DNA of 64,000 nucleotides from a virus. Lineage: Duplodnaviria > Heunggongvirae > Uroviricota > Caudoviricetes. The DNA lies in IMG/VR virus record IMGVR_UViG_3300047567_000058, positions 16,405-80,404 of that record. One strand, 5' to 3'. A program made the position numbers and the translations under genes. Every line of letters begins with the position of its first letter. Positions within the stretch are counted from its first letter, which is position 1. This document shows, in pieces, positions 150 through 63,083 of this stretch. A model generated the notes under the pieces. The model worked only from the letters and a program-made list of their open reading frames with translations, did no database searches and had not been told where the DNA came from.

Positions 150-353
150 ATGCCGGGAATGGACATCGTCTGGGTCTTATGCGACTTCGTGTATGGGCTG
201 ATCGGCGTAGCCTCGGCCGTGCTGATACCATACAACGTTCTTTACTGGCACGACACATACATGCTGGTAGCGTGCATTCTGCTCGTGCTATGCGGAATCT
301 GGTTCGTGATATCCGCGATTAAGACGATCCGAGACGATCTTCGTAAAAAATAA
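150..353 (+). CDS. small membrane protein (67 aa, two predicted TM helices)
   Basis: From the ORF track. ATG follows the upstream stop directly. Two hydrophobic stretches. The stop is embedded in the A-rich element and is followed by a hairpin. Confidence 0.5.
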   Translation: MPGMDIVWVLCDFVYGLIGVASAVLIPYNVLYWHDTYMLVACILLVLCGIWFVISAIKTIRDDLRKK

Positions 354-390
354 AAAAAAAGACCTGACTTGTTGTCAGGCCTTTCTTTTG
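346..390. terminator. bidirectional intrinsic terminator: A-run, GC hairpin (about 363-379), T-rich tail
   Basis: The gacctgac...gtcaggc stem is flanked by A9 on one side and tttcttttg on the other. It closes the convergent genes 150..353 (+) and 391..969 (-). Confidence 0.55.
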
Positions 391-969
391 CTACTTCTTT
401 AAGGCAGCGTTGCGGCCAACCGCGAACTTGGCTGCGATATCGGCAGCCGTTGGCTGGTACCCGATGTCGCGATGAGAAGCGGTTTGCTGCTTAGGCTTCG
501 GCTCAGGCTGCGGAATGGCTGACGGCTCCTCAGGGGAAACCCCAGAGACGATGATCGTCGCCGATTCCATCGCGGCCTTAGACGGAGCCGAAATCGCCGC
601 GATAAGCTTTTCGTAAGCGCTGTTCGTCGCGTTTGCTAAAACCTTCGCCGAATCATCCGGCGAAGATTTTTTTGTTTTTGCGATGTACGAAAATTTCGCA
701 TCGCAGAAATCTTTGTAGGAGATGACATCTCTGACAATCATGGCGGCCATGAATTCTTTGGCTGCTTTCATTGTCGAGATGACAACGAAAGCTCTGTCCT
801 GATTAGGGACAAAGTTGTGCGGCTCATAAACGACGTACAGATCAAAATTTTCGTTGTCTCTGATCAAAGACAACTCATTGTGGAATCTGTCCACGATGTA
901 GCCGATTTTATCGGCTTGGTGATGTGCGACCAATTCTCTGATCGCTGCGACATTTTTTGAAACAAGCAT
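391..969 (-). CDS. hypothetical protein (about 192 aa)
   Basis: ORF-track frame. Start chosen at the second ATG (M25 of the track ORF), 9 nt after the RBS aaaggagg. The translation is protein-like; no recognisable domain. Confidence 0.5.
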   Translation of the reverse strand: MLVSKNVAAIRELVAHHQADKIGYIVDRFHNELSLIRDNENFDLYVVYEPHNFVPNQDRAFVVISTMKAAKEFMAAMIVRDVISYKDFCDAKFSYIAKTKKSSPDDSAKVLANATNSAYEKLIAAISAPSKAAMESATIIVSGVSPEEPSAIPQPEPKPKQQTASHRDIGYQPTAADIAAKFAVGRNAALKK

Positions 970-1047
970 ATGCATATGCCTCCTTTGTTTCATAAGAATC
1001 ATATATCCTTGATCCTGGCTAAAATACGGGATCCTCAACAATCAATT

Positions 1048-1731
1048 ATGTCAGATCTAAAGATATTGCGTGAGAAATCAGCCAACGAATTGAAGCGGCA
1101 GGCGAACGTCATAATCGGCGTTGCCGCATTCGTAATGTTCATCGTTGCGACGTTCTTGTTTTTCATAGCGATCGCTTCGCATTCTGAGCAGCCGCTGCTG
1201 ATAGCCGGGGCCGTCGTGCTGTTCCTTATAGCGTCAGGCATGATCGTCATGATGATCATAAACAGGCGCGCCGAGGACAAGATAAAGAACAGATTCATGT
1301 CCGAGGTATACGGAGTGGCCAGTTCGAAGGCTACCGAGATAGACGATGTCAGCCCCGAGCAGTTCTCAATAGTGTGCGCGATGATGTTCATCAAGTGCGG
1401 ATACAGAGTTAAGCTTGGGAGCCCTGACTCAATGGAAGGCGCTTCCATAATAGTCAAGAAGCGCGGCATCAGGAGAACAAGGGTGCGCTGCGAATTGGCT
1501 ATAGGGAGAATCAGCCCTGATCTGATAAAGCAATTCGCCATATCAAAGAGATTCCATAGGCATTCAGATCTGATGATCATAACCAATGGGTATTTGATGA
1601 AGCCTTCCAGAGAGCTTGCCGAGCAATATGGAATTAAGGTTATTGAAAGGGATAAGCTTCAGAAAATACTGAAGTCGGCTTCTCTTAAGCCGCTTCCGAG
1701 CAATTCGAAGATTGCAAGAACAGGAAAATAA
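1048..1731 (+). CDS. membrane-anchored protein with a C-terminal Mrr-like restriction-endonuclease (PD-(D/E)xK) domain
   Basis: N-terminal TM helices (VIIGVAAFVMFIVATFLFFIAI; LLIAGAVVLFLIASGMIVMMII). The C-terminal region (FSIVCAMMFIKCGYRV...SMEGASIIVKKRG...RCELAIG...ITNGYL) resembles Mrr_cat. Start taken at the internal ATG at 1048, because the track start at 970 would overlap the divergent gene. Confidence 0.45.
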   Translation: MSDLKILREKSANELKRQANVIIGVAAFVMFIVATFLFFIAIASHSEQPLLIAGAVVLFLIASGMIVMMIINRRAEDKIKNRFMSEVYGVASSKATEIDDVSPEQFSIVCAMMFIKCGYRVKLGSPDSMEGASIIVKKRGIRRTRVRCELAIGRISPDLIKQFAISKRFHRHSDLMIITNGYLMKPSRELAEQYGIKVIERDKLQKILKSASLKPLPSNSKIARTGK

Positions 1732-1756: not shown

Positions 1757-2089
1757 ATGATTATTGACAAAAATGGCAACGAGGCTAAATGCGGATACGA
1801 CGCTTTCTCAGAGGGGCATCGCCATGCTACCAAGGAAGAGCGCGAAACGGTTTTTGAAAAGCGCGTCAAATACCGCGGGTACAACATAGACGTGTTCTGC
1901 GACGATAATGGCCAGCAGGAATATTGGTATTTCAAAGGCAGCGATTATTCCGGAGGATCGTTCAATCCTTGCTGGGAAGAAGAGCTCGAATATACCGTTG
2001 ACGAATGGCTTAAGAATCACAAGAAAGAAGCGCTTGCGCATCCTAAGACGATCAATTCTAAAGGAAGCCGTATTCGCCGGTGGAAATAA
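1757..2089 (+). CDS. hypothetical protein (110 aa)
   Basis: ORF-track frame, ATG at 1757. The stop lies inside the A-rich element. Confidence 0.4.
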   Translation: MIIDKNGNEAKCGYDAFSEGHRHATKEERETVFEKRVKYRGYNIDVFCDDNGQQEYWYFKGSDYSGGSFNPCWEEELEYTVDEWLKNHKKEALAHPKTINSKGSRIRRWK

Positions 2090-2125
2090 AAAAAAGATCG
2101 GGTGGTCGTCACTCGGTCTTTTCTT
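2082..2125. terminator. A-rich element plus hairpin between convergent genes; on the minus strand it reads hairpin followed by a T-run
   Basis: ggaaataaaaaaaag followed by gatcgggtgg...cactcggtc (hairpin with G-U pairs). Confidence 0.45.
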
Positions 2126-2648
2126 TAGCGAGATCCTCAAGCTCGGAGTCATTGGCTCCGTTTTTGAAAGCCTCAAGAACAACGGCCTGATACTTAGTCT
2201 GGCAGTCGAATACCTTATCGACTATCCAGCCATGGGCGCGGTCTCTGTGATAGAGGATTGCGGTATCCTTCAGCGTCTTGAAGTCAAGGCGTCTGTCGAA
2301 TGGGCCTCCTTTGCGAACGAACGGATTGCTTGGGAGCCTAACCTCGCCGTCGATCTTGCTGCCATTGACTAAGATAGCCGCTTTGGCAAGCTCGATGACC
2401 GCTTGGTCGAAGTAGTGCCGCTTGGCAAGGCGAGGATGCCCTGCGAGCTCCGGGAATATGGCCTCGATGAAGCTTTCTCCTGAGGCCGTTGGGAATCTTC
2501 CGACCAGCTCATGTATGGTGTCTTCGGTGTCAACGAATTCGTTCTTTGCGGTGGATGCCGTTTTGTAGACGACATAATAATCGTATTCGTCGTCTCCGCA
2601 GAATCCGACGATGCGATTTCGTGATGCTTTGATACAGTGAATCAGCAT
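2109..2648 (-). CDS. hypothetical protein (179 aa)
   Basis: ORF track; protein-like composition; function not recognised. Confidence 0.5.
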   Translation of the reverse strand: MLIHCIKASRNRIVGFCGDDEYDYYVVYKTASTAKNEFVDTEDTIHELVGRFPTASGESFIEAIFPELAGHPRLAKRHYFDQAVIELAKAAILVNGSKIDGEVRLPSNPFVRKGGPFDRRLDFKTLKDTAILYHRDRAHGWIVDKVFDCQTKYQAVVLEAFKNGANDSELEDLAKEKTE

Positions 2649-2745
2649 ATGCTAATCCTTCTTTCTCAGAGAAATGATATATCTGCCAATCTGCTAATCA
2701 GCGTTTTCCCCAAGTGAATTTGCAAGCAAGTAACAACCAATTATC

Positions 2746-5277
2746 ATGAAAACACACCAAAATGCAAAGATCGTCGACAGCCGTTCGCAGGGGCTTACGT
2801 CTGAGAAAGCCGCTCAGCTTAAGTCAGATGGATTGGCAAACGTCACCAACAAGAAATGCTCGAAGTCCTATTGGGATATCATCAGGGACAGCGTGTTCAC
2901 ATTCTTCAACGCGTTGCTTGCCGGCATAGCCATATGCTTCCTCGTGTTCGGGGTGGATGACTGGTCGAAATACGGATTCTGCATCAATCTTGTCCTCAAT
3001 ACGGCAATCGGAATCATCCAGGAAATCAGGTCAAAGAAAGCCGTAGAGAAGCTGTCGATAGTGTGCTCATCTAAGGCATCTGTTCGCAGAGACGGGAAGG
3101 AAATAAAAATAAATTCCGACGACATCGTTTTGGGAGACGTCGTCATTCTGAGATCTGGCGATCAGATCCCTGTCGACGGAGACGTCATCGACGGAAGCGC
3201 CGAAGCCAATGAGTCGCTTCTCACCGGAGAGGCCGACGCCATAAAGAAGGAATCCGGGGCTAAGGTTCTTGCCGGGTCGTTCATCATTTCGGGGTCATGC
3301 TCCATCGTGGCTACGGCCGTGGGGCAATCGACTTACGCGTCCGGCATCCAAAACAAAGCCAAGGAATTCAAGAGAGCCAAGTCTGAGCTGATGACCACGA
3401 TCATGTGGCTGCTCAAGGTTCTGGCGTGCATCATCGTCCCGCTCGGATTCGCCCTGGGGCTTAAGCTTTGGCTTACCAACGGGATGCCGGCGGCGTACAC
3501 GACTTCGTTTGAGTCCGACGTCATAATCCCGACAGGGACCATGATGGTCGGCATGATTCCTTCAGGGATGATTCTCCTTACGTCCATAGCGCTTGCCGTC
3601 GGAATAATCAAATTAGCGTCGAAGAAAGCGCTCGTTCAGGACATGTATTCCATCGAGATGCTGGCCAGGGTAGACACCGTCGCGTTCGACAAGACGGGAA
3701 CCCTTACGGACGGGCATATGAAGGTTGATTCCATAATCAGCCTCAGCCGAAAGGTCAAAGACAATCAGCTCGTCGATCTTCTGTCATCTTTCATCGGCTC
3801 ATTCAAGACGAGCAACGCGACGTCAGCCGCTCTGATAGCTCAGTTCGGATCCGTAGGGTCGATGACGGCTCAGGAAGTGCTTGAGTTCTCCAGCGACAGG
3901 AAGACGTCTTCTGCCGGGATGCCTGACGGATTCATTTACGTTTTGGGAGCGCCGGAATATATCACCGGGGATTCTATCATACTTTCAGAATACGCGAAGC
4001 TGGCTTCCAGAGGGCTTCGGGTCGTCTTGTTCGCAAGGCGCCATGGAAGCCTGCAGCCGCAAGGAGAGGACAGATCGGCTGACATCGATCCGCTGGCTCT
4101 CATAGTGCTTAGGGATGGCGTCAGGCCAGCGGTCATCAGCACGATGAAATGGTTCAAAGACAATTCCGTCAGCGTCAAGATCATCTCTGGCGACAATCCA
4201 TCAACCGTGTCGCAGATCGCCAAAGAAGCCGGAGTCCCAGATTGGGACAAGGCGGTTTCTATGGAGGGGATCCGAGATGAGGATATCCCTCAGATGGCGG
4301 CGGATTTCAATGTGTTTGGGCGCGTTAGCCCGGAGCAGAAGGCTAAGATCATCAAGGCTCTTCAGAAGCAAGGCCATAAAGTGGCGTATGCCGGAGACGG
4401 GGTCAATGACGTCATATCTCTGAAGACAGCGGATTGCTCGGTCGCCATGGCCGGAGGGGCGGATGCCGCCAAAGCGGTTTCCAACATCGTTCTCATCGAT
4501 TCTAATTTCGATGATCTTCCGGCTGCTATAGGCGAAGGGCGCAGAGTCGTCAACAACATAACCAGGACTTCAACTTTGTTCCTGATGAAGACTTTCTCGA
4601 TGATGCTTCTTGGGATAATGACGCTGTGCGGATTATTTTATTATTTCCCTCTCGAGATGGAAAATCTTGCCTTGATGGAGACATTCGTCATCGGGATCGC
4701 CTCGTTCTTCCTGTCGGTCGAGCCTTGCCAGGAAAGGCTTTCAGGATCATTCAAACGCAATATCATGGTGCGAGCGATACCGGCCGCGTTGCTGCTTGCC
4801 GGGTCGGTTCTTGTTGGAAAGATATGGCTTTCGGGCGGGCAGACATGGAGCATAGTCGCTCCGACGATGAAAGACAAAACTCTGATCTGCATGCTTTATT
4901 CGATAGCGTCGTTCATGGTTCTGTTCCGCATAAGCGTTCCTATGAACGGATATAGGTCCGGAGTGTTCATCGGCAACATGGCTGGGGCCGTGATATACTC
5001 GATGTTCCTTCCTCTCAGCGCGTTTGGCGGATGCTCTACCAGCCTTTTCAAAATCGCATCCGATGGCGTAATGCATTTATGGGTTATAAAAATAGATGGC
5101 GCGTACTATGACGCGTTCTCAAAGATATTCGATCTCGGAGGAACGCTTAGCGCATTATCCAGCGGGGATTGGCTGATGATTTTGATCAGCGTTCTGGCGA
5201 TGCCTGTCGTGTACTTCACTATGGATAATCTGTTCTCAAGGATTCCGGAAAAACAAAAATATTCACATTCGAAGTGA
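2746..5277 (+). CDS. P-type cation-transporting ATPase (P2/P3-type, Mg2+/Ca2+-like), 843 aa
   Basis: Phosphorylation motif DKTGTLT (AFDKTGTLTDG). Actuator-domain motif TGEA. Hinge motif GDGVNDVISLKTAD. Multiple TM segments. Full length and uninterrupted. Confidence 0.85.
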   Translation: MKTHQNAKIVDSRSQGLTSEKAAQLKSDGLANVTNKKCSKSYWDIIRDSVFTFFNALLAGIAICFLVFGVDDWSKYGFCINLVLNTAIGIIQEIRSKKAVEKLSIVCSSKASVRRDGKEIKINSDDIVLGDVVILRSGDQIPVDGDVIDGSAEANESLLTGEADAIKKESGAKVLAGSFIISGSCSIVATAVGQSTYASGIQNKAKEFKRAKSELMTTIMWLLKVLACIIVPLGFALGLKLWLTNGMPAAYTTSFESDVIIPTGTMMVGMIPSGMILLTSIALAVGIIKLASKKALVQDMYSIEMLARVDTVAFDKTGTLTDGHMKVDSIISLSRKVKDNQLVDLLSSFIGSFKTSNATSAALIAQFGSVGSMTAQEVLEFSSDRKTSSAGMPDGFIYVLGAPEYITGDSIILSEYAKLASRGLRVVLFARRHGSLQPQGEDRSADIDPLALIVLRDGVRPAVISTMKWFKDNSVSVKIISGDNPSTVSQIAKEAGVPDWDKAVSMEGIRDEDIPQMAADFNVFGRVSPEQKAKIIKALQKQGHKVAYAGDGVNDVISLKTADCSVAMAGGADAAKAVSNIVLIDSNFDDLPAAIGEGRRVVNNITRTSTLFLMKTFSMMLLGIMTLCGLFYYFPLEMENLALMETFVIGIASFFLSVEPCQERLSGSFKRNIMVRAIPAALLLAGSVLVGKIWLSGGQTWSIVAPTMKDKTLICMLYSIASFMVLFRISVPMNGYRSGVFIGNMAGAVIYSMFLPLSAFGGCSTSLFKIASDGVMHLWVIKIDGAYYDAFSKIFDLGGTLSALSSGDWLMILISVLAMPVVYFTMDNLFSRIPEKQKYSHSK

Positions 5278-6260: not shown

Positions 6261-6288
6261 TTGACACTTCTAAAATAGCTATTATAAT
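6261..6288 (+). promoter_or_regulatory. sigma70-type promoter with consensus TTGACA, a 16-nt spacer and TATAAT
   Basis: ttgacacttctaaaatagctattataat read directly; both hexamers match the consensus exactly. Confidence 0.55.
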
Positions 6289-6295
6289 CATACTT

Positions 6296-6550
6296 GCATC
6301 TCGGGGAAACCTAAGAAGCTGCCCAAGTGCTCGATCGGCACGTTTGAAGGGCTCCGATCTCCGGCCGTCGGAAAAGAAACGGGCGGTGTCTATCCGGCGA
6401 GATTCGATTCCGTTCCCAATGATCGCAAGATCACGGAACGCGCGCGTCTCAGATGGAAAGGTAAGGGCTCGCTAAGGTAGTCCCACGGAAGCCAGAAATG
6501 GCAAAGACCTTGGCTAAGAGAATAACCCGTAAGGGTTATTTTTTTTATTT
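6296..6550 (+). ncRNA. candidate structured non-coding RNA or cis-regulatory leader (about 250 nt) between the promoter and an intrinsic terminator
   Basis: No credible ORF (the track ORF 6251..6475 is Arg/Ser-rich nonsense). GC-rich stretches that can pair. Ends in hairpin aacccgtaagggtt followed by T8. Confidence 0.35.
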
Positions 6551-6564
6551 CCCGCTAAGGCGGG
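6524..6564 (+). terminator. intrinsic terminator (aacccgtaagggtt, T8, ATTTCCC) followed by a second small hairpin cccgctaaggcggg
   Basis: Perfect 5-bp stem with GNRA-like loop, T-run, then the recurrent ATTTCC motif. Confidence 0.6.
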
Positions 6565-6575
6565 AACAACTGATT

Positions 6576-6893
6576 ATGATCGTACTAAATGAAAACCAGG
6601 CATACGCCGTTCTAAAAGATCTCGGGTTCGACCAGGAAAGATGGACCCCGGAAGAATATCTCATCAATGAGGGAATCTCATATGAGTGCGGATATTACGA
6701 CGGCAAATTCCAATATCGCTTCGGCGGAGACACCGAGCACTACATCGCCGAGAGCTGCGTCAACGTGGGAATAAAGCCATATGCCGATCAAGGCATTCTC
6801 AACGAAAGCTCAGATGATGACAATCCGATCAAGGCGAAGCTCAAAGCCATCATGGCCGCAAGGGCTGCCAAGAAGCCATCCGTTGCTAAGTAA
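6576..6893 (+). CDS. hypothetical protein (105 aa)
   Basis: Internal ATG (M27 of track ORF 6498..6893) downstream of the terminator; the upstream part of the track ORF overlaps the terminator. Confidence 0.5.
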   Translation: MIVLNENQAYAVLKDLGFDQERWTPEEYLINEGISYECGYYDGKFQYRFGGDTEHYIAESCVNVGIKPYADQGILNESSDDDNPIKAKLKAIMAARAAKKPSVAK

Positions 6894-6924
6894 GGCCGAT
6901 CTTAGAAGATTGGCCTTTTCTTTG
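6894..6924 (+). terminator. intrinsic terminator (ggccgatcttagaagattggcc followed by ttttcttt)
   Basis: Inverted repeat directly after the stop codon, followed by a T-run. Confidence 0.55.
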
Positions 6925-6951: not shown

Positions 6952-7581
6952 ATGAGATACAAATCAATCATAGCAGGGCTCTTCTACTCAAAAACTCCTA
7001 ACGATCGGACTACGTTTGCGTTCGATCCTTTTGACATGAGCGACGGCATCTGCGTCAATTCAAGATATGGATATGACTCAATCGATGGGGACAACGTCGA
7101 TATCAAGGACGTCGATGATCTGGTGGCAAACGGGGAGATAATCCCGGTCTCAAGAAAGCTGGATGCCCCGAGGCGAGTTCGCAAGCCTTGGTATTACATA
7201 ATAATAAATAAATCCTACATCGATGATGTCGAAGCGACGTTCATCATCACCAAGAAAGTTCATCACCACGGAGAATATGATTATGCCGTCGAAACGCTCC
7301 TGGTGTTCAAGCAAGTCAAGAAAAAATCAGATCATGCCAAGATCAGAGTGCTGTCTGGGACGTCAAAGAGCAATAATTCGCCGTCAAACGCGATTCATAT
7401 GTGCGGGACGTATATGCGATATGGCGACGTCGATGCCTATCAGAAAGCCAATGGAGACCCCGTTCAAGATCTGACGTACATCATCACTGAGCAGCTCAAA
7501 GAATTGGCTCCGGTTCTCCAAGGCAAGACGATAGACGTCAAATCAGCAATCGAGAGCGCAATGATGGATATGCGCGTATGA
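6952..7581 (+). CDS. hypothetical protein (209 aa)
   Basis: Internal ATG (M58 of the track ORF) after the upstream terminator. Contains one in-frame AT-rich element (IIINKSYI). Confidence 0.5.
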   Translation: MRYKSIIAGLFYSKTPNDRTTFAFDPFDMSDGICVNSRYGYDSIDGDNVDIKDVDDLVANGEIIPVSRKLDAPRRVRKPWYYIIINKSYIDDVEATFIITKKVHHHGEYDYAVETLLVFKQVKKKSDHAKIRVLSGTSKSNNSPSNAIHMCGTYMRYGDVDAYQKANGDPVQDLTYIITEQLKELAPVLQGKTIDVKSAIESAMMDMRV

Positions 7582-7597: not shown

Positions 7598-8005
7598 ATG
7601 CCAAATGATTATTACGAAGATCCCAGATACGCGATCGTCGTGACTCAGATCGATGTCTATATCTTAAAAAGCATCGACGAGATAAACGCCAGACTGGACA
7701 ATCTAGAAGCCAATCTTTCGATGCTGTGCAATAGGGTGCAGAATGATTTCATAAAGATCACCGATGGCGGATACGTCCAAGACAAGGATTTCTTTGAGGA
7801 TGGGTCATTCAGAGACATATATCCCAACCAGGTTAATTACGTCGACGGGCATCCTACAAAAGCCATAGTTCAGACTGAGTATTCAAATCGCGTCAACGCA
7901 TATGGGCTTTCTTCATTGAAGGACATGACTTCTGATATTAGTAGCCTTAAATCGCAAGTTTACGGCATTCAATGCCTGATGGCTTCGCGGGAAACAAAAA
8001 AATAA
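7598..8005 (+). CDS. hypothetical protein (135 aa)
   Basis: ATG at 7598 preceded by gaaagga. Followed by a terminator. Confidence 0.5.
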   Translation: MPNDYYEDPRYAIVVTQIDVYILKSIDEINARLDNLEANLSMLCNRVQNDFIKITDGGYVQDKDFFEDGSFRDIYPNQVNYVDGHPTKAIVQTEYSNRVNAYGLSSLKDMTSDISSLKSQVYGIQCLMASRETKK

Positions 8006-8032
8006 AGCCAGACTAACTGTCTGGCTTTTTTA
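8006..8032 (+). terminator. intrinsic terminator (agccagactaactgtctggct followed by T6)
   Basis: Perfect 7-bp stem and T-run immediately after the stop codon. Confidence 0.7.
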
Positions 8033-8765
8033 GTGCCGTACGAGATACGATATCGAAACTCTGACCTGAGGCGCCTGCGGGGACTTGCACGCCGTTCTCA
8101 AGTTTGGAAATCTTGAATATTCCGTGTTGAGAGAGTTCCAAAAGCAAGTCCCAGGCGAGGCGCCTGAGGGAAGAAGCGAACATGCGCTTCAGGCATTTGA
8201 ACTGCTGAGAGCCTCAGCGATTTACTACGACACAGACTTAATTGTGTATCTCAAGCATGCTTTCACATGACAGCGTATCCCGATCGGGCCCGCGTGTGAA
8301 CTCCTCCACGAAACAGAAATAGTTGCTTGGCTATGTCTGTAGAGCGGGGAGTTCTTCGCGGGCCGGACGGGATATCGCTATTTGGTCTGAAGCTTATCTG
8401 TTGACGCCTGGGGATCCGGATATTTAACGAGGCGTCTGTGCCCGACGTCAAAGATCCGGATCGCATGGTCGTCATCAGATAGCGTAAGGCTTTAAGCGAT
8501 AGCTTATAGTACAACCGAGGATGCCCCGGTATTTTCCATGCTTGTGCAAAAGGCATACGATAATTGAAAGACAGATGCGTCCCAGTCCAGAGGCTGTTGT
8601 GTTTGAATCGGCGTTCGCTCCGTGCGCAAAACGCCGGTTCAAGCCGAAAGCTTCTGGATTTGGGAAAGCGTCATGTTTGAGAATCATATCGCGCAATCGC
8701 AGGAATCCTGCGCAAAACTATGCCTTATTATTTCTAGACGATGCGCCTTTAATAATTAGAAATGA

Positions 8766-8834
8766 ATCCTGATCATGAATTCAACCGTTTAGCCACAGCA
8801 TGTGACTTAACGGTCTGAAGCTCATGATCAGGAT
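8766..8834. repeat. long inverted repeat (13-bp perfect arms atcctgatcatga / tcatgatcaggat plus inner imperfect pairing) inside a region that lacks ORFs
   Basis: Read directly from the sequence; a roughly 69-nt hairpin. Confidence 0.6.
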
Positions 8835-9228
8835 CTCAGTTCAAAGAGCCTATGGACTTAGCGCTGTGGTGAAGCAGAGATGCAAGAGCTACATGGCAGC
8901 GGTGATCCAGGCATCCATGCCTGGATCCCCGCTGCGCACGAGCTCTAGCAGATCTGCTTGGCGGATGCACCGGATGAACTCATCTTCAGAAGTGCCTGCA
9001 CTTCTGAGATGAAGATCACCGGTGCCATGTAAGCCAGTCAGCGCGGTGCGACGCTCGCAAACGATCTGAATCTACAGCTTGCTGGATATCTTACGCCAGT
9101 CGAAGACGACCTAAGCAAGATATCCGCAAGCGGGATTCAGAGAATGCGAGCCTATCGCAAGTCCATAAAAACAGCAGTCTAAACAGTAGCCGAAAGATGC
9201 TTTCGGTGATCCGCATCGTTGGATAATG

Positions 9229-9579
9229 TCAGCTGACGCTCTTAAGAGCAGGATCTGAATATCCGTCAGAGCTTGAAGGCTTATTGTTTGAGTCTTCAGG
9301 CAATTTGACGGCAGAATCATACATGGTGATGCATCTCTTGCTCGTCTTGAAGAAGACGTAGATCCATCCCTTGTAGTACTTGACTATCTTGCCTTGCTTA
9401 TCTGACTTTCTTTTGACAAAGTCAGCAGTCGGGCCCGGCGGAAGCTCGTACCAGAGCTTTCCGTTATTTCGCGCCTCGGCGATCAGACGATTGGCCTGTT
9501 CGTTATCTCTAACGCCCATCCTCTCATCCGTTCGCTTGATCGCGTGCAGAGTATTATCGTGGTGATGTCTCATTCGCAT
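9229..9579 (-). CDS. hypothetical protein (116 aa)
   Basis: ORF track; protein-like (…GKLWYELPPGPTADFVKRK…); no domain recognised. Confidence 0.4.
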   Translation of the reverse strand: MRMRHHHDNTLHAIKRTDERMGVRDNEQANRLIAEARNNGKLWYELPPGPTADFVKRKSDKQGKIVKYYKGWIYVFFKTSKRCITMYDSAVKLPEDSNNKPSSSDGYSDPALKSVS

Positions 9580-9888: not shown

Positions 9889-10450
9889 TTTTATTTACTC
9901 CTTTCTGAAAAAAGGCAAAGCACGGATTAGATCAGTGCCCTTTCTTTCAACAAGATCATATATCCGCTATCTTGCATTTGACTAGACGGAAGCCGTATGG
10001 TAAAGTCTTATTGCAGGGATTGCTTGGCTAGGGTTTGATTTCTAGCGGGCTGACTTGCCGGCCGTGAACCTAAGACTTCTGGCATACGGCGGCCGTTAAA
10101 ACATGCGCTATACACGAAGGTAGCTTGCATGCTGCACAAATAGTCCAACTGCGTGATTCACGCCAGTGGCTGCGCTAAGTTGTCAAATTAGCATAGGATT
10201 TGTAGCATGCCTGATCATGCGCACAATGAGATCAGAGATCTAACGGGTATGGCCGAACTCTGAATCAGTCCGTATCAAACCGCTTTGCTTACGACAACTG
10301 CATAACAACGAGCCAGAAGCTGTATCCTATGCTGAATCCCCGGTCGTGAGCTGCATTCGTGCGGCATGGGGATCTTTTTTTTATTTTCCCCTGCTGGCAA
10401 AGGGGCCTCGAACAATAGATTATTGCAGACTAATTTGAGGCATCAAGATA

Positions 10451-13400
10451 ATGTTCGTATCACCGAGTAAGATGAAGTTGGATCGTATCCTTCTAGGGCG
10501 CACGATCAATTTCGACACAGAGAGAAAGATGTACGGAAATCTTGTGGTTCTGGCCACGGATTCTTATGACGACATAGCTTCGGTGATGACTCAATATGCT
10601 GTTTAGGCCTCAGCAGCTTTACTGCATGTACACGCCTCGTGTGGTCCGCCCTTTAAACAGAAAGATCGTTCGCGAGGATCAAGCTGCCGTTTATGCCTCG
10701 CTCAGAGACAAAAGCTCCGGTAGATTAAAAATTGGAAAGCCATTTGTCACATCGTATGCCGAGAAAAATCTGGTGTACGATATGATTCCTGATTTCAAAG
10801 AAACCCTTGCTCTTCGTGAAAACAAGCAGGGATTTGCAAGGTATATCGCGATGAAGGACTTCCTGGAAGAGTTCCTTCCTGAAGCTGTTTCCTCAGTAGG
10901 ATATCAGAAGAATTATTTGATTTTCCCTATTTGCGACTATTCTGACAAACTCGGATCAGTCGCCAAAATGGGATTGTTTGACACAAGCGTTGAAGGACGT
11001 GACCCCTATGTCATTATTCCTTCTTACGCTCAGAAAAGGCCTTGCCGATATGTCCGTCTATAAGATGTTCGACAGGATCATCTTCTATAATCCTAACAAC
11101 GAGGCTGTCGTGGTCATGGATCCGTCAGATCCGACTCTTGAGAAATCGATCAACGACTATCTCCTTAAGATATCGCGTCTCAATAACGCGAATATGGGAG
11201 AGGCCCTAGAAGGAGATGACGTCGATTCCGATGGATCTGATGAGGCTGATGACTCCGACAAGAGCGACGAAGCGAAGGAAAAAATAAAAAATTTCGTATT
11301 CACGTCAGTCTCTAAGTCACTTAAGATCAGAGCTCCTGAGACATTTGACGCCGCCACCAAAGACGAAGGAGACATCGCGGCTGTCGTCGATAAGAAGATC
11401 GACGGATATCTTTCCAAGAAAGAGAATGCCGGAAAGTCCTATGACGATCTAAAGACAACGATCGAAGCGGATCCCGATGTGAAAGCGGCTGCCATTAAGT
11501 ACGTCGAGACCAAGAAGAGCAACAGCCAAAAGCTCAATCAGCTTGCCAAGGGCCTTGAGAAAGAGGCCAAAGTCATAGATGATTTCGAAAAATCGTCTGC
11601 ATCCGATAAAGAAGAGCCGGAAGACAAATCGAAGCAAACTGCCGGAACCGCTGTAAAGCCATCGGTTCTGTCGGCTCTGAAATCCGCGGCGGCTGCGAAA
11701 TATGCCGCTAAAGACGATGATGAAAGCAAGGCTTCTCCTATAGCCGTCGATGCCGAGTCTCTCCTCGATGACAAGGAAATAGACGTCGATGTCGCCAACT
11801 TCGACAGCCGCGTTAGGCATAGCTCATTGATGGCGCTTGACGAAGACTATAACACCAAGCAGGCCAAGAAAGACCTGATGAGCATCCTCACCCATTTCTC
11901 AAACTCGCAGTTCCTTCCGATCGCGATGGACAGAATCAACATCGTTGACTCGAGCGATGACTTCAATAAGAAGATGACCCTTACGGCTCATTACAAAGCT
12001 GACGACGGATCGTCGCTTGGATTCACGCTCGACATCCCTGAGGTGATCGATGGCAGATTCATCTTCATCAACGGAAACAAGATGTTCATTCGAGAAGCAG
12101 CTTCTCCGTCTTCCTATCGTCAAGACCAAGCCAAACGTCGTCGAGATCTCGACATCATACAGCAAGATCACGGTTGAACGCACCAATGAGAAGGTTTCGC
12201 GCAGAAACGTCCGTCTTCTGAAGATGATCAAAACCGCCGAGCCTTCTGCCAAGGGATGGACTGTCCTTTGGGGAGACAATTCTGTCCATAACGACAGATA
12301 CGTCAGCGATTTCGAATATGAAGAGCTAGCGTCTAGCATCTCTTCGATTGACGCCCCGAGATACGATATCGACCTCGATCGTCAGCGCATCATGAGCAAG
12401 ATATCCGCGATGGACTTCCCAGACGGATTCTTCAAAGACGATTCGATGGACACCCCTATAGCGATCGAGAAGAACTCATCCAACGTCATTCACATCAAGC
12501 CTGACGGAGCTGTCTATCTGGCCATTCCGACTAAAGACGGAGGATCTATCGCGTCTGACAACAAAGCTGCCGATTGCATCCAGGCATTCGTTCTGGCTGC
12601 ATTGGGGCTGCAGAATGCGGATATCCCGTCTATCGGAAAGAGCTTCGTCTATTCGAGAGCCAAGATGATCGAGCAGTTCTATCCGATCTTCTCTCTGTGC
12701 GGATTCATGGAAGGAATCACCAGCGTTTTGAGAAGATACGGAGTCAAATACACGCTTTCAGACAAGCGCGACAGAACGCTTCTTTCCAATTACGTCGAGA
12801 TCCGTTTCAGGGATAAATATTTTTATTTCCTGGACAATCTCAAGAACACGATGCTTCTTAACGTCCTTCGCTTGATGGAGACCGACCAATACGACTTCAG
12901 AGACTTTGACACTGAGGATCCGTATGTCAATTTCTTCGTCAATGTCCTTGGCTACAACTCGTATGCCAGAAACACCATCAAGCTTCATCTGTCGGCGATG
13001 GTCGATCCCTATTACCTACGACGTTCAGAAAGATCTTAAGCAGCCTACGGATATCGTCGGGATGCTCTTATTCGCCAACACGCTTCTGACGACCAATACC
13101 CTGCCGATCGCTAAACGACGCCAAGAAACTACCGCATCAGAGGAAACGAAGAGATATACGCTGTTCTGTACAAAGTCCTTGCCGACGCATACAAGAACTA
13201 TCAGAACGGCCGCCTTAATGGGCACAGAGGAGGGCTTGATCTTCCTAAGAACGCCCTCATCAAGGCCCTGACCAACCAGGTAAACGTCAATCCGGCAAGC
13301 GTATTGAACCCGGTGCTTGAGCTTGAAAGCCTTTCAAACTGCACGCAAAGGATTCAACGGCGTCAACCTGGACAAGGCGTACACCATGAAGATGCGCGCT

Positions 13401-14803: not shown

Positions 14804-14840
14804 CCGGCGCTCAATCGCCGGCCTTTATTTTATTTTTTCC
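14804..14840 (+). terminator. intrinsic terminator (ccggcg-ctcaat-cgccgg, then cctttattttattttttcc)
   Basis: 6-bp GC stem plus a T-rich tail carrying the ATTTTCC motif, directly after the rpoB-like stop. Confidence 0.65.
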
Positions 14841-15243
14841 ACAGGTACACGGCGCTTCCAGCTCCGTATATGGACGGATAGCCTTTGTACTCTTCGTACT
14901 TTGACGGGTCTCTGTCGATGACCCTTCCGTCTGGGAGGATCACCCATTTGTTTGGCTTTGTCACGCCGACGAGATTCATTCCGATGGCTTTGTATCCTTT
15001 GCCGTCGAACATATTGAGGTCGCAGTATGACAGCACGGACTCCGGGCTGTTGTCTTTGACGAAATGCGAGAACAGCCTGGACACGCCTCCGACGACGAGG
15101 TTATTCGATCCTGGGCATCCTCTGATGATCTCCCATTGGGCCAGATGGCTGTATCTTGGCTTTCCGAAGCTCATCAGCTGAAGAAGCTCTCCTGATTTGG
15201 AGAACAGCCCATAAGTGATTTTGGCATAGACATATCCTTGCAT
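14830..15243 (-). CDS. GIY-YIG homing endonuclease-like protein (137 aa)
   Basis: GYVYAKITYGLF (GIY...YIG), RYSHL (Arg), AQWEII (Glu) and GSNN (Asn) at canonical spacing. Start at M11 of the track ORF. Confidence 0.5.
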   Translation of the reverse strand: MQGYVYAKITYGLFSKSGELLQLMSFGKPRYSHLAQWEIIRGCPGSNNLVVGGVSRLFSHFVKDNSPESVLSYCDLNMFDGKGYKAIGMNLVGVTKPNKWVILPDGRVIDRDPSKYEEYKGYPSIYGAGSAVYLWKK

Positions 15244-16888: not shown

Positions 16889-16917
16889 ATAATCATTTGT
16901 TCCGGTTCGCGTCTCTC

Positions 16918-23984: not shown

Positions 23985-23992
23985 CCATTGAA

Positions 23993-44070: not shown

Positions 44071-44129
44071 CGCTTAAGCCTCCGACGTCATAATTCATTG
44101 TTGAAGAATTTGTGAAGGAATCGAATGTT

Positions 44130-47873: not shown

Positions 47874-47903
47874 AATCAATTGTTCGGGACGCCGGACGCC
47901 GCC

Positions 47904-47940
47904 GGGAAATAAAAAAAAGAACCCGAATCGGATCGGGTTC
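47904..47940 (-). terminator. intrinsic terminator: hairpin gaacccgatccgattcgggttc then T8ATTTCCC (minus strand)
   Basis: Perfect 8-bp stem. Confidence 0.75.
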
Positions 47941-48848: not shown

Positions 48849-48905
48849 GGGGAAATAAAAAAATAAACCCCAGAAGCATAGGCGTTTGACCTAAGCTTCT
48901 GGAGT
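48849..48905 (-). terminator. intrinsic terminator: hairpin ccagaagc-ttaggtcaaacgcctat-gcttctgg then GGTTTATTTTTTTATTTCCCC (minus strand)
   Basis: 8-bp stem; follows the Rsr-like gene and the left structured element. Confidence 0.6.
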
Positions 48906-58942: not shown

Positions 58943-59005
58943 ACGATCTCCTTCTTTACGGATACAATTCTACGTGAAGCTTTCCCGGTTGTCAATGCCG
59001 CGCTT

Positions 59006-59047
59006 GGAAAAAATAAAAAAAAGCGGCGTCTCAGAACGGAACGTCGC
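59006..59047 (-). terminator. AT-rich element plus hairpin (agcggcgtctc...gaacgtcgct) terminator
   Basis: GGAAAAAATAAAAAAAA followed by an imperfect stem of about 8 bp. Confidence 0.5.
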
Positions 59048-60145: not shown

Positions 60146-60607
60146 TTACTTCTTATCGAGGCGCTTGTCAATCGCGGCGTCGGCTGTTTCTCCATTGGCG
60201 GCTTGAGGGACGATCCCGTTTGGCCCTATGGAGTTCATGACGGCGTTTGCCGAATTAAGATCAGCGACCTGAGCCTTGTAAAGGTTCCTTGCGATGGAAA
60301 TGAGCGCGGACTCGTTGTCTCCTCCGCCTGTGACGGTGGCTTTGACTGCGTAGTCCATGACGGTCTTATGGATCTCGAACCGATCCTCAAGCAACGTCGC
60401 CTTCATCGTTTCCAATGCGATGGCGTTCTTGTAATGGTCGGTGAGATAATGCTCGCCTCCTCTTGATCCGGCGCCTTGCATCAAACCGATTCGTCCATCG
60501 ATGCCCTTCTTGTAGAGCTCGATATCGGAAATGGTCGAGTTTATGGCGTCTAAATCGTCTTTGAAGTAATCTTCGAATTGCTTAGTTTCTGGTGTTGGTG
60601 CAGCCAT
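60146..60607 (-). CDS. hypothetical protein (153 aa)
   Basis: ATG at M8 of the track ORF with RBS ggaggg. Confidence 0.45.
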   Translation of the reverse strand: MAAPTPETKQFEDYFKDDLDAINSTISDIELYKKGIDGRIGLMQGAGSRGGEHYLTDHYKNAIALETMKATLLEDRFEIHKTVMDYAVKATVTGGGDNESALISIARNLYKAQVADLNSANAVMNSIGPNGIVPQAANGETADAAIDKRLDKK

Positions 60608-60657
60608 TGGACACGTCCCTCCGATCAATAATACGTTGTTCGGAGGGGCGTTTTTGG

Positions 60658-63003
60658 CTAGATTGACAGATTGAGGGATATTGACGCGTCCATATACTCG
60701 AGATTATGCTTGAACTCAACCGCTTCCGGAGATGATTGATCTGAGAAGTAGTATTTGAAAAGCCCTTCGAAATATGTCTGCGAGAACTGATTTCGCAAAG
60801 CCGGAGTAAAGGAGACCTCTCCGCGATAATATTCGTTAGCAGAAGCTCGCTTAACGGAATTAGCGATAGCCGCTGTTTGGCGATAAGTAACGGCGGAGTC
60901 GTTGTTGATGTTGGCGACGATGATTCCGAGCGCGGTCATTAATGGGAGATCAGGATCGCCATCGATCTGGCTGAATGCCGTGTCGTAATGCGGATTTGAG
61001 ATATCGCTCTTCAGTTGATCGCTGATAGTCCTGGCTGCTTGCTCGAATGCAGCGCGTCCACTATAGACGCAACCAGGAAGAGCCCCGGATACGAATAGCA
61101 CCATTGGAAGATAGGTCTTCTGGGCGGCGGCCATTTCCAGCAATTTGTTAGAAGCGGCCTTTCCGCACATGGCGACAAGCCTAGTGATAGGCTGAATGTG
61201 ATAATAATCGAAGCGTTGACCGTTTATGGACGATTCTTCGATCTTCGAATAGATGATGTCGTAATACTGATCGGAGATTATCCCGCTGTCGTAGCATGAC
61301 CCGACTATGGCCGCCAGAGATTCTCTGTCGGCGTCGGTCATGTCGAGATTGGAGATGTCATAGACGCTTGCTCTAGGATCATCGTCGTTTGGAGTTACGC
61401 ATTTATTGATGAACACGTCATAGAAATCGTTCATTATGACATTTGCGGCATTGAGATGCTTTCCGTTAAGCTGCCAATTAGACGCAAAGACGCCGAATCC
61501 TCGTATCATCGCGTCGAATATCATTCGGCACGACGCTTTCTTGTTGGCGTTTGGACTGAATTTGGCGAACCGCTTCACGACTGACATGAAAGATGCCGAT
61601 GATCTGTCGCTGTTTCCAGGGTCGTAAGGAAGGGCTCCTTTGTCTGTGGCGAACATATTCCATAGACCAGGATATTGGATCATCTCCTCAGGATCTGTGC
61701 ACGATATCGTTCCGATGATGTATTCATGGGCCAAAGAAGCCTTCATGATATATGTCGGATCTCCTTCGCATGCGCTGTAGTCTATCGCGATGGCTGAGAT
61801 TAGTTTGTTGTTATTATTGCTCGGGCATACGACATAGCTGGCTCTGGCGTTGAATTTTGACATGGCGGATTCAAGGCTGCGATAGCCTTTTACCGATGAG
61901 AAGAAGTCATTGGCGCCAGGCATGCCTTTGTAGTGTTTAGCCCGGGTTGCCTTGGAGATGTTCTCTTCGGTGCTGACTCCGGAAGCCTTCGAGTATTTGT
62001 AAACCGTGTTGATGGCGGCTTCAAGCTTAGGAACGAGAATCTGCTCTCGGACGTTGAGAACTTCTGACGCAAGTCTGCCTTTCGTCAGAGTAGGATGCTC
62101 GCACTTGGCGATGATGTCCGCAAGCGCCGAAACCTGAGAAAAATCTGTGAATTTGAGATCGAATATCTCCGCATATACCGGTATGGCTTTCTTTACGCAT
62201 GCCTTCGGATCTGACGACACGAATGCCATTTTGCTGGCGTCGTCGATGTTGGGATTGACTAAAATCAGCTCGCGGTTGATGCGGATCTTATTGGCGGCGT
62301 TGACGGAGACGACGTCATAGGTCATCCCAGCCGGGCATTGGAACAGCCCTATTCCATCCGGGTCTTCTTTGAACGAAGCCTTGAGGATTCCTTCGGACTT
62401 ATTCACGAATTTGATGATTCGGCTGATATCGGTGTCGTACATGATCTCGCAATCAAGATAGTATTGGAATAGGTTGCACGGCGAAAACGGGATCCCTGCG
62501 AAAGACGCATCGGAGTCCATTAGATTTCCGCTTGAAACGAAAAACGAATCTGGCGCTTTGAGAAGAAGCGTGACGACGTCGCCTATCCTAGAAGTCTCGA
62601 ATTTGAAGATCTTGTTAAGCATCTGAAATACGTTTGACGCGTTATCGCCGAACCAGGAATATTTGTTTTCCCTGACGATGCTTGAAAGGATCACTTTTGC
62701 GATGTCTACGCTGAGCTTCGAATCGACGTCGACATAGCAGTTTCTGTACAATCCAAGCATGCCGCTGATGAAGTTTATCTTAGTAGGATTGGTGTAGTTA
62801 TACGAATCGTATGTTCTTAGGTTAGTGATACCTTCGACGATTTTCTGAGTTTCCGGATCAACCAGAACGCTGAGAGGCAATCCGGCTAATATGCAGAACA
62901 GCGCTTGGCCGTATACGACGCCTTCTCTTGTTGAAAGGCTTACAGTCGCAAGCTCGCGAAGATTATCTATGGCTTTCTCTCGGTCGAATGGTTTGTCATA
63001 CAT
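60658..63003 (-). CDS. large hypothetical protein (781 aa)
   Basis: ORF track; uninterrupted; no recognisable motif. Confidence 0.5.
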   Translation of the reverse strand: MYDKPFDREKAIDNLRELATVSLSTREGVVYGQALFCILAGLPLSVLVDPETQKIVEGITNLRTYDSYNYTNPTKINFISGMLGLYRNCYVDVDSKLSVDIAKVILSSIVRENKYSWFGDNASNVFQMLNKIFKFETSRIGDVVTLLLKAPDSFFVSSGNLMDSDASFAGIPFSPCNLFQYYLDCEIMYDTDISRIIKFVNKSEGILKASFKEDPDGIGLFQCPAGMTYDVVSVNAANKIRINRELILVNPNIDDASKMAFVSSDPKACVKKAIPVYAEIFDLKFTDFSQVSALADIIAKCEHPTLTKGRLASEVLNVREQILVPKLEAAINTVYKYSKASGVSTEENISKATRAKHYKGMPGANDFFSSVKGYRSLESAMSKFNARASYVVCPSNNNNKLISAIAIDYSACEGDPTYIMKASLAHEYIIGTISCTDPEEMIQYPGLWNMFATDKGALPYDPGNSDRSSASFMSVVKRFAKFSPNANKKASCRMIFDAMIRGFGVFASNWQLNGKHLNAANVIMNDFYDVFINKCVTPNDDDPRASVYDISNLDMTDADRESLAAIVGSCYDSGIISDQYYDIIYSKIEESSINGQRFDYYHIQPITRLVAMCGKAASNKLLEMAAAQKTYLPMVLFVSGALPGCVYSGRAAFEQAARTISDQLKSDISNPHYDTAFSQIDGDPDLPLMTALGIIVANINNDSAVTYRQTAAIANSVKRASANEYYRGEVSFTPALRNQFSQTYFEGLFKYYFSDQSSPEAVEFKHNLEYMDASISLNLSI

Positions 63004-63028
63004 AATGTGTTGTGTTTCTTTCCTTGAA

Positions 63029-63083
63029 GGAAAATAAAAAATAATCCCCTGAGGGAATGCCTTTCGGCATCCTCTCAGAGGGT
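63029..63083 (-). terminator. AT-rich element plus a long imperfect hairpin overlapping the sbcC-like stop codon
   Basis: GGAAAATAAAAAATAAT followed by cccctgagggaatgcc-tttc-ggcatcctctcagaggg. Confidence 0.5.

Follow-up and report, generated by a model that had tools for sequence, protein, structure and literature searches.

A fixed-length A/T-only island shared by terminators, genes and operon junctions of an uncultured AR9-like jumbo phage

Thirteen or so putative terminators in a 64,000-nucleotide (nt) stretch of viral DNA (IMG/VR record IMGVR_UViG_3300047567_000058, positions 16,405 to 80,404; the whole stretch is called the window here) were described in an earlier note as uniform in architecture: a GC hairpin, a T-run, and the tail ATTTTCC. 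What is this tail, and does it belong to termination? Judged from its encoded proteins, the source of the window is an uncultured jumbo phage from the lineage of AR9, PBS1, and phiR1-37, which encodes its own multisubunit RNA polymerases (RNAPs). The tail is the 3' edge of a discrete element composed of G, 15-16 A/T-only bases (T5-8, A, T3-6), and CC. This element, here called the island or block, is independently selected and genome-wide. Hairpins at gene ends precede only ~13 to 15 of its copies; for about two thirds, the context is not that of a terminator.

The sequence TTTTTTATTTTCC, with at most one mismatch, matches the window 13 times against 0.11 expected (0/100 shuffles); the heptamer ATTTTCC alone is not enriched (18 vs. 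12.9 expected). All 13 sites of the earlier note are present on the strand given there, each with a T-run, A, T3-6, and CC. The tail reads literally ATTTTCC at four of them (10383, 21393, 33197, and 63029), ATTTCC(C) at five (2082, 6541, 47904, 48850, and 56463), and AT5-6CC at three (14824, 16918, and 59006), and site 346 terminates in TTTTTTAC. Of the 13, ten belong to the minus strand and three to the plus strand, which corrects a previous count of 11 and three. According to the gene map and the contexts, all 13 are located directly 3' of a stop codon and are oriented as the gene. A run of T6-T9 begins 0-4 nt from the stem at 12 sites, the exception being 33199, which is TTTTATTTT. Strong adjacent hairpins (-9.9 to -25 kcal/mol) are found at nine sites (344, 10375, 14824, 21395, 33199, 47907, 48853, 56466, and 63031) and weak ones (-2 to -7 kcal/mol) at four (2084, 6536, 16921, and 59008); at 6536, the stem continues into the U-tract. 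Hairpins adjacent to T-sense copies are stronger than those at control/random positions (Mann-Whitney p = 0.001). In their hairpin, U-tract, and post-stop placement, the sites resemble intrinsic terminators as proposed, and on this anatomy the 13 are predicted to be intrinsic (Rho-independent) terminators. The architecture is predominant rather than uniform. Two terminator-like sites have no tail (6892-6917, plus strand; 54333-54361, minus strand), a G interrupts the T tract of a third (7992-8028, minus strand), and four of the 13 hairpins are weak. The tally was also too low, as the same block occurs ~20 more times without a hairpin. The 13 sites are as follows:

342-381, minus strand: terminator, hairpin and T9-A-T6 block, after gene 391-969 (minus); -11.9 kcal/mol
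2082-2115, minus strand: T8-A-TTT-CC block with weak hairpin at a convergent junction, after the stop of 2109-2648 (minus); -2.2 kcal/mol
6516-6552, plus strand: terminator whose stem takes in an A-rich/U-rich extension; TTA-T8-ATTT-CCC
10336-10389, plus strand: terminator, hairpin and ATC-T8-ATTTT-CCCC; -15.9 kcal/mol
14804-14840, plus strand: bidirectional terminator between the convergent RNAP beta-like gene (plus) and 14830-15243 (minus); -9.9 kcal/mol, other side -12.2
16919-16952, minus strand: terminator, 6-bp stem and T6-A-T6-CCC; -6.7 kcal/mol
21393-21429, minus strand: terminator, hairpin and ATC-T8-ATTTT-CC; -13.4 kcal/mol
33197-33234, minus strand: terminator, hairpin and TTTT-A-TTTT-CC (short block); -16.2 kcal/mol
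47905-47940, minus strand: terminator, hairpin and TTC-T8-ATTT-CCC; -12.7 kcal/mol
48851-48904, minus strand: terminator, hairpin and TTTA-T7-ATTT-CCCC; -22.7 kcal/mol
56464-56512, minus strand: terminator whose 5' arm is a late-promoter motif, with ATTA-T8-ATTT-CCC; -12.3 kcal/mol; the positional homologue at 12536 of the relative L001 has both motifs
59006-59047, minus strand: T8-A-T6-CC block with weak hairpin after an HD-domain gene; -5.8 kcal/mol; sigma70-like promoter 14 nt downstream
63029-63081, minus strand: terminator, hairpin and ATTA-T6-ATTTT-CC after an SbcC-like gene; -24.7 kcal/mol; homologue at L001 4490

Conserved terminator motifs are known in the giant phages phiKZ and 201phi2-1 (PMC11512511), and terminators have been described in AR9 (PMC5312081). 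In 201phi2-1, 132 termination sites were found (PMC11512511). As in all three phages, a G+C-rich hairpin with a U-tract stands just after the stop codon in the orientation of the gene, and as in phiKZ and 201phi2-1, one motif is common to many terminators of a genome. The 201phi2-1 genome is just over 300 kb, which gives roughly one terminator per 2-3 kb, the same order as in the window. Two differences from phiKZ and 201phi2-1 are evident. The conserved part in the window is not the stem but a fixed 15-16-nt A/T-only tract ending in CC, and this tract is also present ~20 times without a hairpin, mostly antisense in genes.

The island stands out by its length. A/T-only runs of at least 12 nt number 36 in the window against 5.0 expected, and those of at least 14 nt number 30 against 1.2. 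The distribution of run lengths is two-peaked: a background that decays over 9-12 nt is followed by a sharp maximum at 15-16 nt, with no run above 17. The copies were aligned on the last T before C, the first C being demanded by the scan. Between -13 and -1, every position is T in 70-100% of the copies; 72% have G at -17, and 83% have the second C at +1. Out to 40 nt on both sides, no position is informative beyond the G/CC flanks. The spacing of 15-16 nt between the last G and CC is kept even at hairpins that end in GATC or TTC. Except for composition, length, and flanks, the sequence is degenerate and contains no exact conserved oligomer. There is no strand polarity, with 20 copies on the plus strand and 17 on the minus strand. 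Complementary flanks forming a stem around the block were considered; by inspection they are present at only a few copies.

Three contexts can be distinguished: T-sense intergenic copies (class A), copies inside genes (class B1), and copies at operon-internal junctions (class B2). In class A, the T-rich strand is the sense strand, mostly behind a hairpin, and the class consists of the 13 listed sites and two more:

22957-23003, minus strand: T-sense block (22959) in a divergent intergenic region, abutting a sigma70-like -35 element (TTGAAA)
30071-30088, minus strand: T-sense intergenic block (30073) without hairpin (AAAATA-T8)

Classes A and B are mirror images which share a GGAAA(A)TAAAAA core, length, and flanks, and thus constitute one family. 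The proposal that the tail matches the arms of an intragenic element in sequence is borne out, with equal length and the same G...CC flanks.

There are ~15 intragenic copies in the window, and in 13 of the 15 the T-rich strand is antisense; the same is true of all six intragenic copies from L001 and the flanks of the window's own genome. The sense strand of the antisense copies reads GGAAAATAAAAATAATTCC and encodes E/G-[K/N/I]4-5-S/F. When codons were shuffled synonymously within each gene, preserving both the protein sequence and the codon usage, 0.53 intragenic A/T-only runs of at least 14 nt were expected against 12 observed, and 0 of 300 shuffles reached 12. Elsewhere, A-runs on the sense strand are depleted (62 vs. 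106). The intragenic copies are thus selected at the nucleotide level. Their origin can be followed in the topoisomerase gene, where L001 has GAA AAT AAA ATA AAA TCC and the window has AAG AAC AAG ATC GTC GGC, with unchanged length. By such alignments, the copies arose in place via synonymous or conservative codon changes. The intragenic copies are as follows:

3099-3117, minus strand: P-type ATPase gene, T-antisense, EIKINS at the conserved RDGxxxxI
4630-4648, plus strand: P-type ATPase gene, T-sense, GLFYYFP, no T-run above 4
7196-7215, minus strand: T-antisense, degenerate
11277-11296, minus strand: RNAP beta-like gene, T-antisense
12811-12830, plus strand: RNAP beta-like gene, T-sense, longest T-run 5
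15871-15890, plus strand: T-antisense, EIKNKIS
17985-18003, plus strand: T-antisense, ENKIIS
20126-20143, plus strand: RecJ-like gene, T-antisense, GKIKFS
24421-24439, plus strand: boundary of the NrdD C-terminus and glutaredoxin module, T-antisense
25891-25910, plus strand: NrdD/intein region, T-antisense
29783-29803, plus strand: NrdD ATP-cone, GKIKNNS; T7 in the window, T6 in four other assemblies
32357-32375, plus strand: Band_7 gene ahead of the transmembrane helix, GNKKYF, T-antisense
44424-44442, plus strand: codons 2-7 of 44130-44444 (minus), strong hairpin on the antisense strand; -18.1 kcal/mol
47091-47108, plus strand: T-antisense, GKIKKS
51217-51236, plus strand: final codons of the topoisomerase gene, T-antisense

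Several simpler accounts of these copies were rejected. A peptide-level motif E/G-[KNI]4-5-S is not supported, since protein-preserving shuffles give 0.5 against 12 observed. An inserted mini-element is not supported either, as homologous codons are replaced at constant length in the RDGxxxxI region of the P-type ATPase and in the topoisomerase alignment. No consistent start codon downstream of the intragenic blocks points to internal translation starts, and no AACA-type motif downstream points to promoter activation. At block 29785, an apparent +1 frameshift in an A7 run splits nrdD, and frameshifting or transcriptional slippage was considered; in four of four other assemblies, the run is T6 and the 1932-aa gene is uninterrupted, and the frameshift is due to a homopolymer insertion error in the window. 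The nrdD gene (24151-29969, minus strand) encodes an ATP-cone, two inteins, of which one has HNH and NUMOD3 domains, and, at the C-terminus, a glutaredoxin-like module. The linker ahead of this module is the exact site of block 24423.

At the junctions, the A-rich strand is the sense strand, and the block holds the upstream stop codon or directly precedes the Shine-Dalgarno sequence (SD) or ATG. Five such copies are present in the window (30753, 34535, 41594, 53541, and 54978), and similar ones are present in the relatives L024 (1364 and 4283) and L001 (7768 and 14022):

30751-30769, plus strand: sense strand GAAAAATAAAATTATTCC directly 5' of AGGAGG-N7-ATG
34533-34552, plus strand: block that contains the ClpP stop codon, hairpin on the side of the T-rich strand; -15.3 kcal/mol
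41592-41611, plus strand: block with the stop of 41601-43169 (minus), strong adjacent hairpin; -23.6 kcal/mol
53539-53558, plus strand: block upstream of the helix-turn-helix gene 53275-53517 (minus)
54976-54995, plus strand: block abutting the ATG of the SD-less 54364-54975 (minus); homologue at L001 14022

It is very unlikely, but conceivable, that the hairpin-less copies function as stretches of unstructured, A-rich RNA within the sense mRNA, for example, as SD-independent ribosome landing pads, RNase E entry sites, or Hfq (AAN)n sites, and have only composition in common with the terminator T-tracts. Five copies abut the ATG of SD-less genes (54978; L024 1364 and 4283; L001 7768 and 14022), others are directly 5' of an SD, leaderless and SD-less initiation is evidently used by the phage, and many A-oriented copies read (AAN)4. 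Nevertheless, most copies are deep in genes, far from start codons, and two are T-sense. In addition, hairpin-less copies and terminator blocks are reverse complements of each other, which two unrelated functions would not predict.

The distribution of the blocks is not random. They are spaced more evenly than expected (coefficient of variation, CV, 0.60 vs. 0.96, P = 0.0004). Intragenic copies keep apart from other copies, with a median nearest-neighbour distance of 1018 vs. 593 nt (P = 0.02). T-blocks on the plus strand are regular, with a mean spacing of 2.65 kb, a CV of 0.54 vs. 0.93 (P = 0.004), and a smallest gap of 968 nt.

No nucleotide match to the window was found in the phage collection, and no close relatives were found in the phage and viral collections. 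L001 is 70% identical in family B DNA polymerase (PolB) and has a G+C content of 59%. The remaining relatives show at most ~50% PolB identity, and nearly all have 26-35% G+C; the metagenome scan for relatives gave low-GC genomes only, in which A/T runs are uninformative. The element was expected to be conserved in relatives, and it is kept in L001, which contains 11 blocks/runs in 17 kb against 0.03 expected. The density is ~1 per 1.5 kb in both the window and L001, and the flanks of the window's own genome contribute ~9 further blocks. Four intergenic positions are common to the window and L001 (63031/4490, 59008/9150, 56466/12536, and 54978/14022), and no intragenic position is common to both. 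The orientation appears flipped between 53541 and L001 15266; their intergenic regions are organised differently, hence this is weak evidence. Low-GC relatives show no enrichment of A/T-only islands against shuffles; an AT-rich genome gets by chance whatever it is that the island provides.

Could ordinary terminators and Lys/Asn-rich coding patches alone account for all of this? The coding strand is A-rich, with an AT skew of 0.15-0.2. The probability of this explanation is nonetheless negligible. Dinucleotide, Markov, and synonymous-codon shuffles rule it out, as seen in the tail matches (13 vs. 0.11), the long runs (30 vs. 1.2), their intragenic subset (12 vs. 0.53), the counts in L001 (11 vs. 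0.03), and the two-peaked lengths.

What, then, would the island do? The reading we favour, with a probability of about 0.4, is that it acts on transcription elongation complexes and that the hairpin-less copies are antisense stop or pause sites for the phage polymerases. When a polymerase crosses the island, the whole RNA:DNA hybrid and the bubble would consist of A·T/U pairs only. With a T-rich sense strand and a preceding hairpin, this would give a long U-tract and easily opened downstream DNA, and thereby the end of an operon. Inside genes and at operon junctions, long sense U-runs would be harmful, and the block would be held T-antisense. There it may stop or destabilise antisense transcripts, possibly those from the very simple AACA-N6-TA late promoter. 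Such stops would need no 3' hairpin because antisense transcripts need not be stable, and a hairpin would assist where a stable 3' end is useful. AT-rich relatives would obtain T-tracts free, and the GC-rich clade would build them by codon choice, antisense at ~1 per 2.6 kb. After terminators, transcription would restart from separate promoters, not from the tail. In AR9, antisense RNAs from late promoters are known, and the polymerases stop at predicted terminators (PMC5312081).

Antisense stopping would account for the orientation rule, for the antisense hairpins of a subset of copies, for the spacing on each strand, and for the stronger avoidance of T-runs on the sense strand of relatives. 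Pooled antisense (class B) copies have hairpins with a mean of -6.4 vs. -4.3 kcal/mol (p = 0.05), and 30% of them reach -9 kcal/mol or lower vs. 17% of controls; the strong subset includes 3101, 29785, 34535, 41594, and 44426, and L001 2619 and 16612. In the low-GC relatives L003 and L004, sense runs of T6+ are depleted against synonymous shuffles (2 vs. 8.0 and 5 vs. 13.9), and this depletion exceeds that of A6+. It is consistent with T-runs being harmful in the mRNAs of this phage family. In the window, sense T-runs are not depleted (T5+, 11 vs. 7.8).

Hairpin-independent oligo-T signals are used in poxvirus early transcription (T5NT), by RNA polymerase III, and by archaeal RNAP. The island resembles them in its T-run broken by one base, for which TTTTTAT fits T5NT, and possibly in long T-runs being kept off the sense strand in genes. 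It differs in that sense T5NT is not depleted (4 vs. 1.5) and in its fixed 16-nt length and CC boundary.

A number of observations weigh against antisense stopping. Hairpins of -9 kcal/mol or lower accompany two of 12 intragenic copies vs. 15% of controls, which is not significant as a group. The view of the tail as a signal coupled to termination is not supported, as about two thirds of the copies are intragenic or abut start codons and their hairpins are no stronger than control. In ~10 copies, the T-runs are at most 4 nt, yet the full 15-16-bp A/T-only length and the G...CC flanks are present; thus termination alone is insufficient. Well-formed T-sense copies are present inside genes at 4632 and 12813, with no T-run above 5. 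The blocks abutting SD-less start codons suggest a role in sense RNA or duplex DNA instead. Depletion of AACA-N6-T[AG] on the antisense strand is not seen (14 vs. 12.6). The stopping of phage polymerases at a bare T-tract is an assumption of this reading, and the constant 15-16-bp length, the short-T-run copies, and the two T-sense intragenic copies would remain unexplained by it.

These last three features are explained better if the island is an element of duplex DNA read by a protein other than RNAP, as a G/C-clamped A-tract of fixed 16-bp footprint kept at a minimum density in the genome. We regard this as possible but doubtful, ranking it not far behind antisense stopping. Candidate readers would be a phage nucleoid or DNA-binding protein, topoisomerase IA entry, helicase loading, or lagging-strand priming, and terminators would lengthen their T-tract to island length, hence the ATTT(T)CC tail. 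The length of 15-16 and the G...CC flanks in every context, including the short-T-run and the T-sense intragenic copies, are in favour of it. Island and terminator are separable, given the terminators at 6892 and 54361 without island and the two thirds of islands without hairpin. Copies are created in place, positions turn over while density is conserved, the overall spacing is more even than random with intragenic copies avoiding others, and the AT-rich relatives, which have such sites by chance, show no enrichment. The only amino acids with A/T-only codons are K, N, I, Y, L, and F, which leads to A-rich sense strands in soluble proteins and to the T-rich copy in GLFYYFP of the P-type ATPase. 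On the other side, the T/A asymmetry and the pattern of T-run, A, T-run remain in intergenic copies, which are free of coding constraint. The lack of strand polarity also counts against it, and no candidate binding protein or precedent has been identified. A 16-bp island is too short for spontaneous opening, and known primases recognise 3-nt sites.

Chi, DNA uptake sequences, and KOPS are dispersed, over-represented genomic words. Like them, the island is genome-wide and over-represented, is maintained in genes by codons, and keeps its density while positions turn over. It differs from them in being defined by composition and length, with no exact word or strand polarity, and in that about one third of the copies are terminator tails. 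A wider interpretation, which is speculative, is an AT-island code in the GC-rich AR9-like clade: 16-bp G/C-clamped A-tract islands, at least ~1 kb apart, would be re-created by codon choice and serve a process undescribed for phages, and terminators would merely share the island. Such a process might insulate against antisense transcription by the sigma-less viral polymerases with no need of hairpins, or it might act on duplex DNA, for example in the priming of replication or in phage chromatin.

The earlier note also considered the tail as a re-initiation signal and remarked that several genes begin 30-60 nt downstream. This is not supported. Separate promoters are present between block and gene, which accounts for the short distance, and no start-site position is conserved. 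A hint of a start-site-like base at position 21 vanished when the classes were analysed separately. The late promoter of AR9, used by the non-virion RNAP, is AACA-(6N)-T-A/G(+1) (PMC5312081, PMC7598289, PMC9209446). The corresponding motif AACAANNNATTA (AACA-N6-TA) occurs 11 times in the window against 0.31 expected, always intergenic and oriented as the downstream gene, and is also present in relatives at 45-50% PolB identity. It is distinct from the tail block, being located 14-23 nt downstream of four blocks (6536, 10375, 16921, and 47907) and upstream of one; at 56497, the motif is the 5' arm of the terminator hairpin itself.

1037-1048, plus strand: late promoter motif AACAATCAATTA, predicted +1 A is the A of ATG, leaderless
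2732-2743, plus strand: late promoter motif 3 nt ahead of the P-type ATPase ATG
6565-6576, plus strand: late promoter motif, leaderless, 14 nt past block 6536
10411-10422, plus strand: late promoter motif, 23 nt past block 10375
16890-16901, minus strand: late promoter motif, ATG 2 nt past the predicted +1, 19 nt past block 16921
22996-23007, plus strand: late promoter motif for the plus-strand gene starting near 23044
30001-30012, minus strand: late promoter motif upstream of nrdD (start 29969)
44091-44102, minus strand: late promoter motif upstream of 43267-44070 (minus)
47873-47884, minus strand: late promoter motif, leaderless with in-frame ATG at 47873, 22 nt past block 47907
56497-56508, minus strand: late promoter motif within the 5' arm of terminator 56464-56512
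60629-60640, minus strand: late promoter motif upstream of 60146-60607 (minus)
58967-58995, minus strand: sigma70-like promoter TTGACA-17-TAGAAT (11/12) upstream of PolB
6261-6288, plus strand: perfect sigma70 consensus promoter TTGACA-16-TATAAT (12/12)

The motif and its orientation are as in AR9, and an AR9-like RNAP beta subunit is encoded. In contrast to AR9, the core is longer (GAACAAT.GATTA), and in at least 3-5 cases +1 is at the ATG or 2-3 nt before it. At 1037, 6565, and 47873, the predicted +1 A coincides with the A of ATG, and at 2732 and 16890 it precedes ATG by 2-3 nt. These five placements imply that the late mRNAs concerned would be leaderless. No such mRNAs were reported for AR9, in which 5' untranslated regions (UTRs) are 26-491 nt (PMC5312081).

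Past the tail-less terminator 54333-54361, the window (54270-54330, minus strand) and L001 (14617-14660) share a conserved sequence, TTAGCACTC(T/A)CAACAATAC, perhaps a late promoter variant whose spacing is non-standard. Sigma70-like promoters follow blocks 59008 and 22959. The one at PolB suggests that a replication gene may be transcribed by host RNAP in a lineage thought to be host-RNAP-independent. TTGACA is also present at the corresponding place upstream of PolB in L001 (~9965). The perfect consensus at 6261 is followed by ~250 nt without an open reading frame and then by terminator 6516-6552. This region (6261-6552, plus strand) has a fold z-score of -2.5 and no Rfam match; it is a candidate for a small RNA of the phage, transcribed by host RNAP.

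It is unlikely that the block itself is or contains a promoter, whether a diverged early promoter for the virion RNAP or a terminator-promoter cassette in which T-oriented copies restart transcription and the others are internal or antisense promoters. Each studied jumbo phage that encodes RNAP has a conserved A/T-only early promoter of ~10-13 nt (PMC7598289, PMC5312081), a description that the block fits. The AR9 early consensus AAATATATATTAT-N6-G has no credible match in the window or L001, so that some other motif must serve as early promoter. It is present in low-GC relatives with 45-50% PolB identity, upstream of genes and often right after a terminator T-run (L003 20510, 21049, and 21520; L008 1721 and 14047; L009 3039; L013 5668). 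With the consensus absent here and present there, the block is not an early promoter of the AR9 type. T-oriented blocks are also found upstream of genes in two divergent regions without an upstream gene (22959 and L001 9928). At 22959, the A/T tract is directly before the -35 element (TTGAAA-17-TATCGT), where the UP element of a sigma70 promoter would be, and, more loosely, the same is seen at 59008 and L001 9928; most copies are not so placed. A density of ~1 per 1.5 kb would be ordinary for promoters of large lytic phages, as AR9 has 159 start sites in 251 kb (PMC5312081). Against a promoter, the block is found in either orientation, with about half of the copies opposing genes and ~15/37 intragenic. 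No start-site position is conserved on either side, the distance to ATG ranges from -1 to >60 nt, copy 56466 is placed between the late promoter of a virion structural gene and its coding sequence, in the 5' UTR, and the sigma70-like sites (12/12 and 11/12) could serve early transcription. Compared with the AR9 early promoter, the island is a similarly sized, highly conserved A/T-only block that stands out in the same way. It differs in its inconsistent orientation, absence of a start-site position, 4-6x higher density, many intragenic copies, and an A-tract-like rather than alternating TA sequence.

The assignment of the phage is based on its polymerases, which are nearest to those of AR9, PBS1, phiR1-37, S6, and LPJP1 with an overall identity of 27-40%. 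The RNAP beta-like protein matches phrog_14872 at E = 4e-101 and is 34-40% identical to its best matches in LPJP1, S6, phiR1-37, PBS1, and AR9; PolB is 27% identical to that of AR9/PBS1. Pfam/PHROG matches in the window include a P-type ATPase, a RecJ-like protein, NrdD with two inteins, ClpB, RNase H, topoisomerase IA, PolB, and the phage multisubunit RNAP beta-like subunit; the ClpP annotation comes from another assembly. The same phage was recovered in several metagenome assemblies with contigs up to 219 kb at 99.9-100% identity. Compared with 3-4 of them, the window has ~20 single-base insertions/deletions, many in short same-base runs (10593-13345 and 23394-29989), and its homopolymer insertion errors cause two genes to be falsely split, nrdD (1932 aa) and that of the RNAP beta-like protein (1445 aa).

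Some cargo is unusual in a phage: a P-type cation ATPase (2746-5277), a Band_7/SPFH protein (31332-32639), and a ClpB-ClpP pair (34545-37525). Two stretches without called genes are unusually long, 8270-9229 (~1 kb) and 50604-51202 (~0.6 kb). The latter adjoins a DUF2828/DUF7788 gene (phrog_850, 'RNA-binding protein'), and an Rfam search of it gave no family at E <= 1. Known RNA families and tRNAs were searched for and none were found.

A fixed-length island with hairpin-less antisense copies in genes, built by codon choice and conserved in density but not in position, goes beyond the described systems found. For annotators, not all 'terminator-like' T-tracts in such genomes are terminators. 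The sites together give a transcription map of an uncultured jumbo phage, with putative terminators, AR9-type late promoters of which several are apparently leaderless, unlike in AR9, and sigma70-like promoters. If the hairpin-less islands are functional, they would be a clean natural case of a signal written into coding sequence by synonymous or conservative codons. The island is visible only since the lineage shifted from ~30% to 50-59% G+C; in low-GC model phages such as AR9, the need would be hidden because A/T-rich DNA is everywhere. It opens a testable question: what the multisubunit RNAPs of giant phages, or their replisome, require of A/T-rich DNA.

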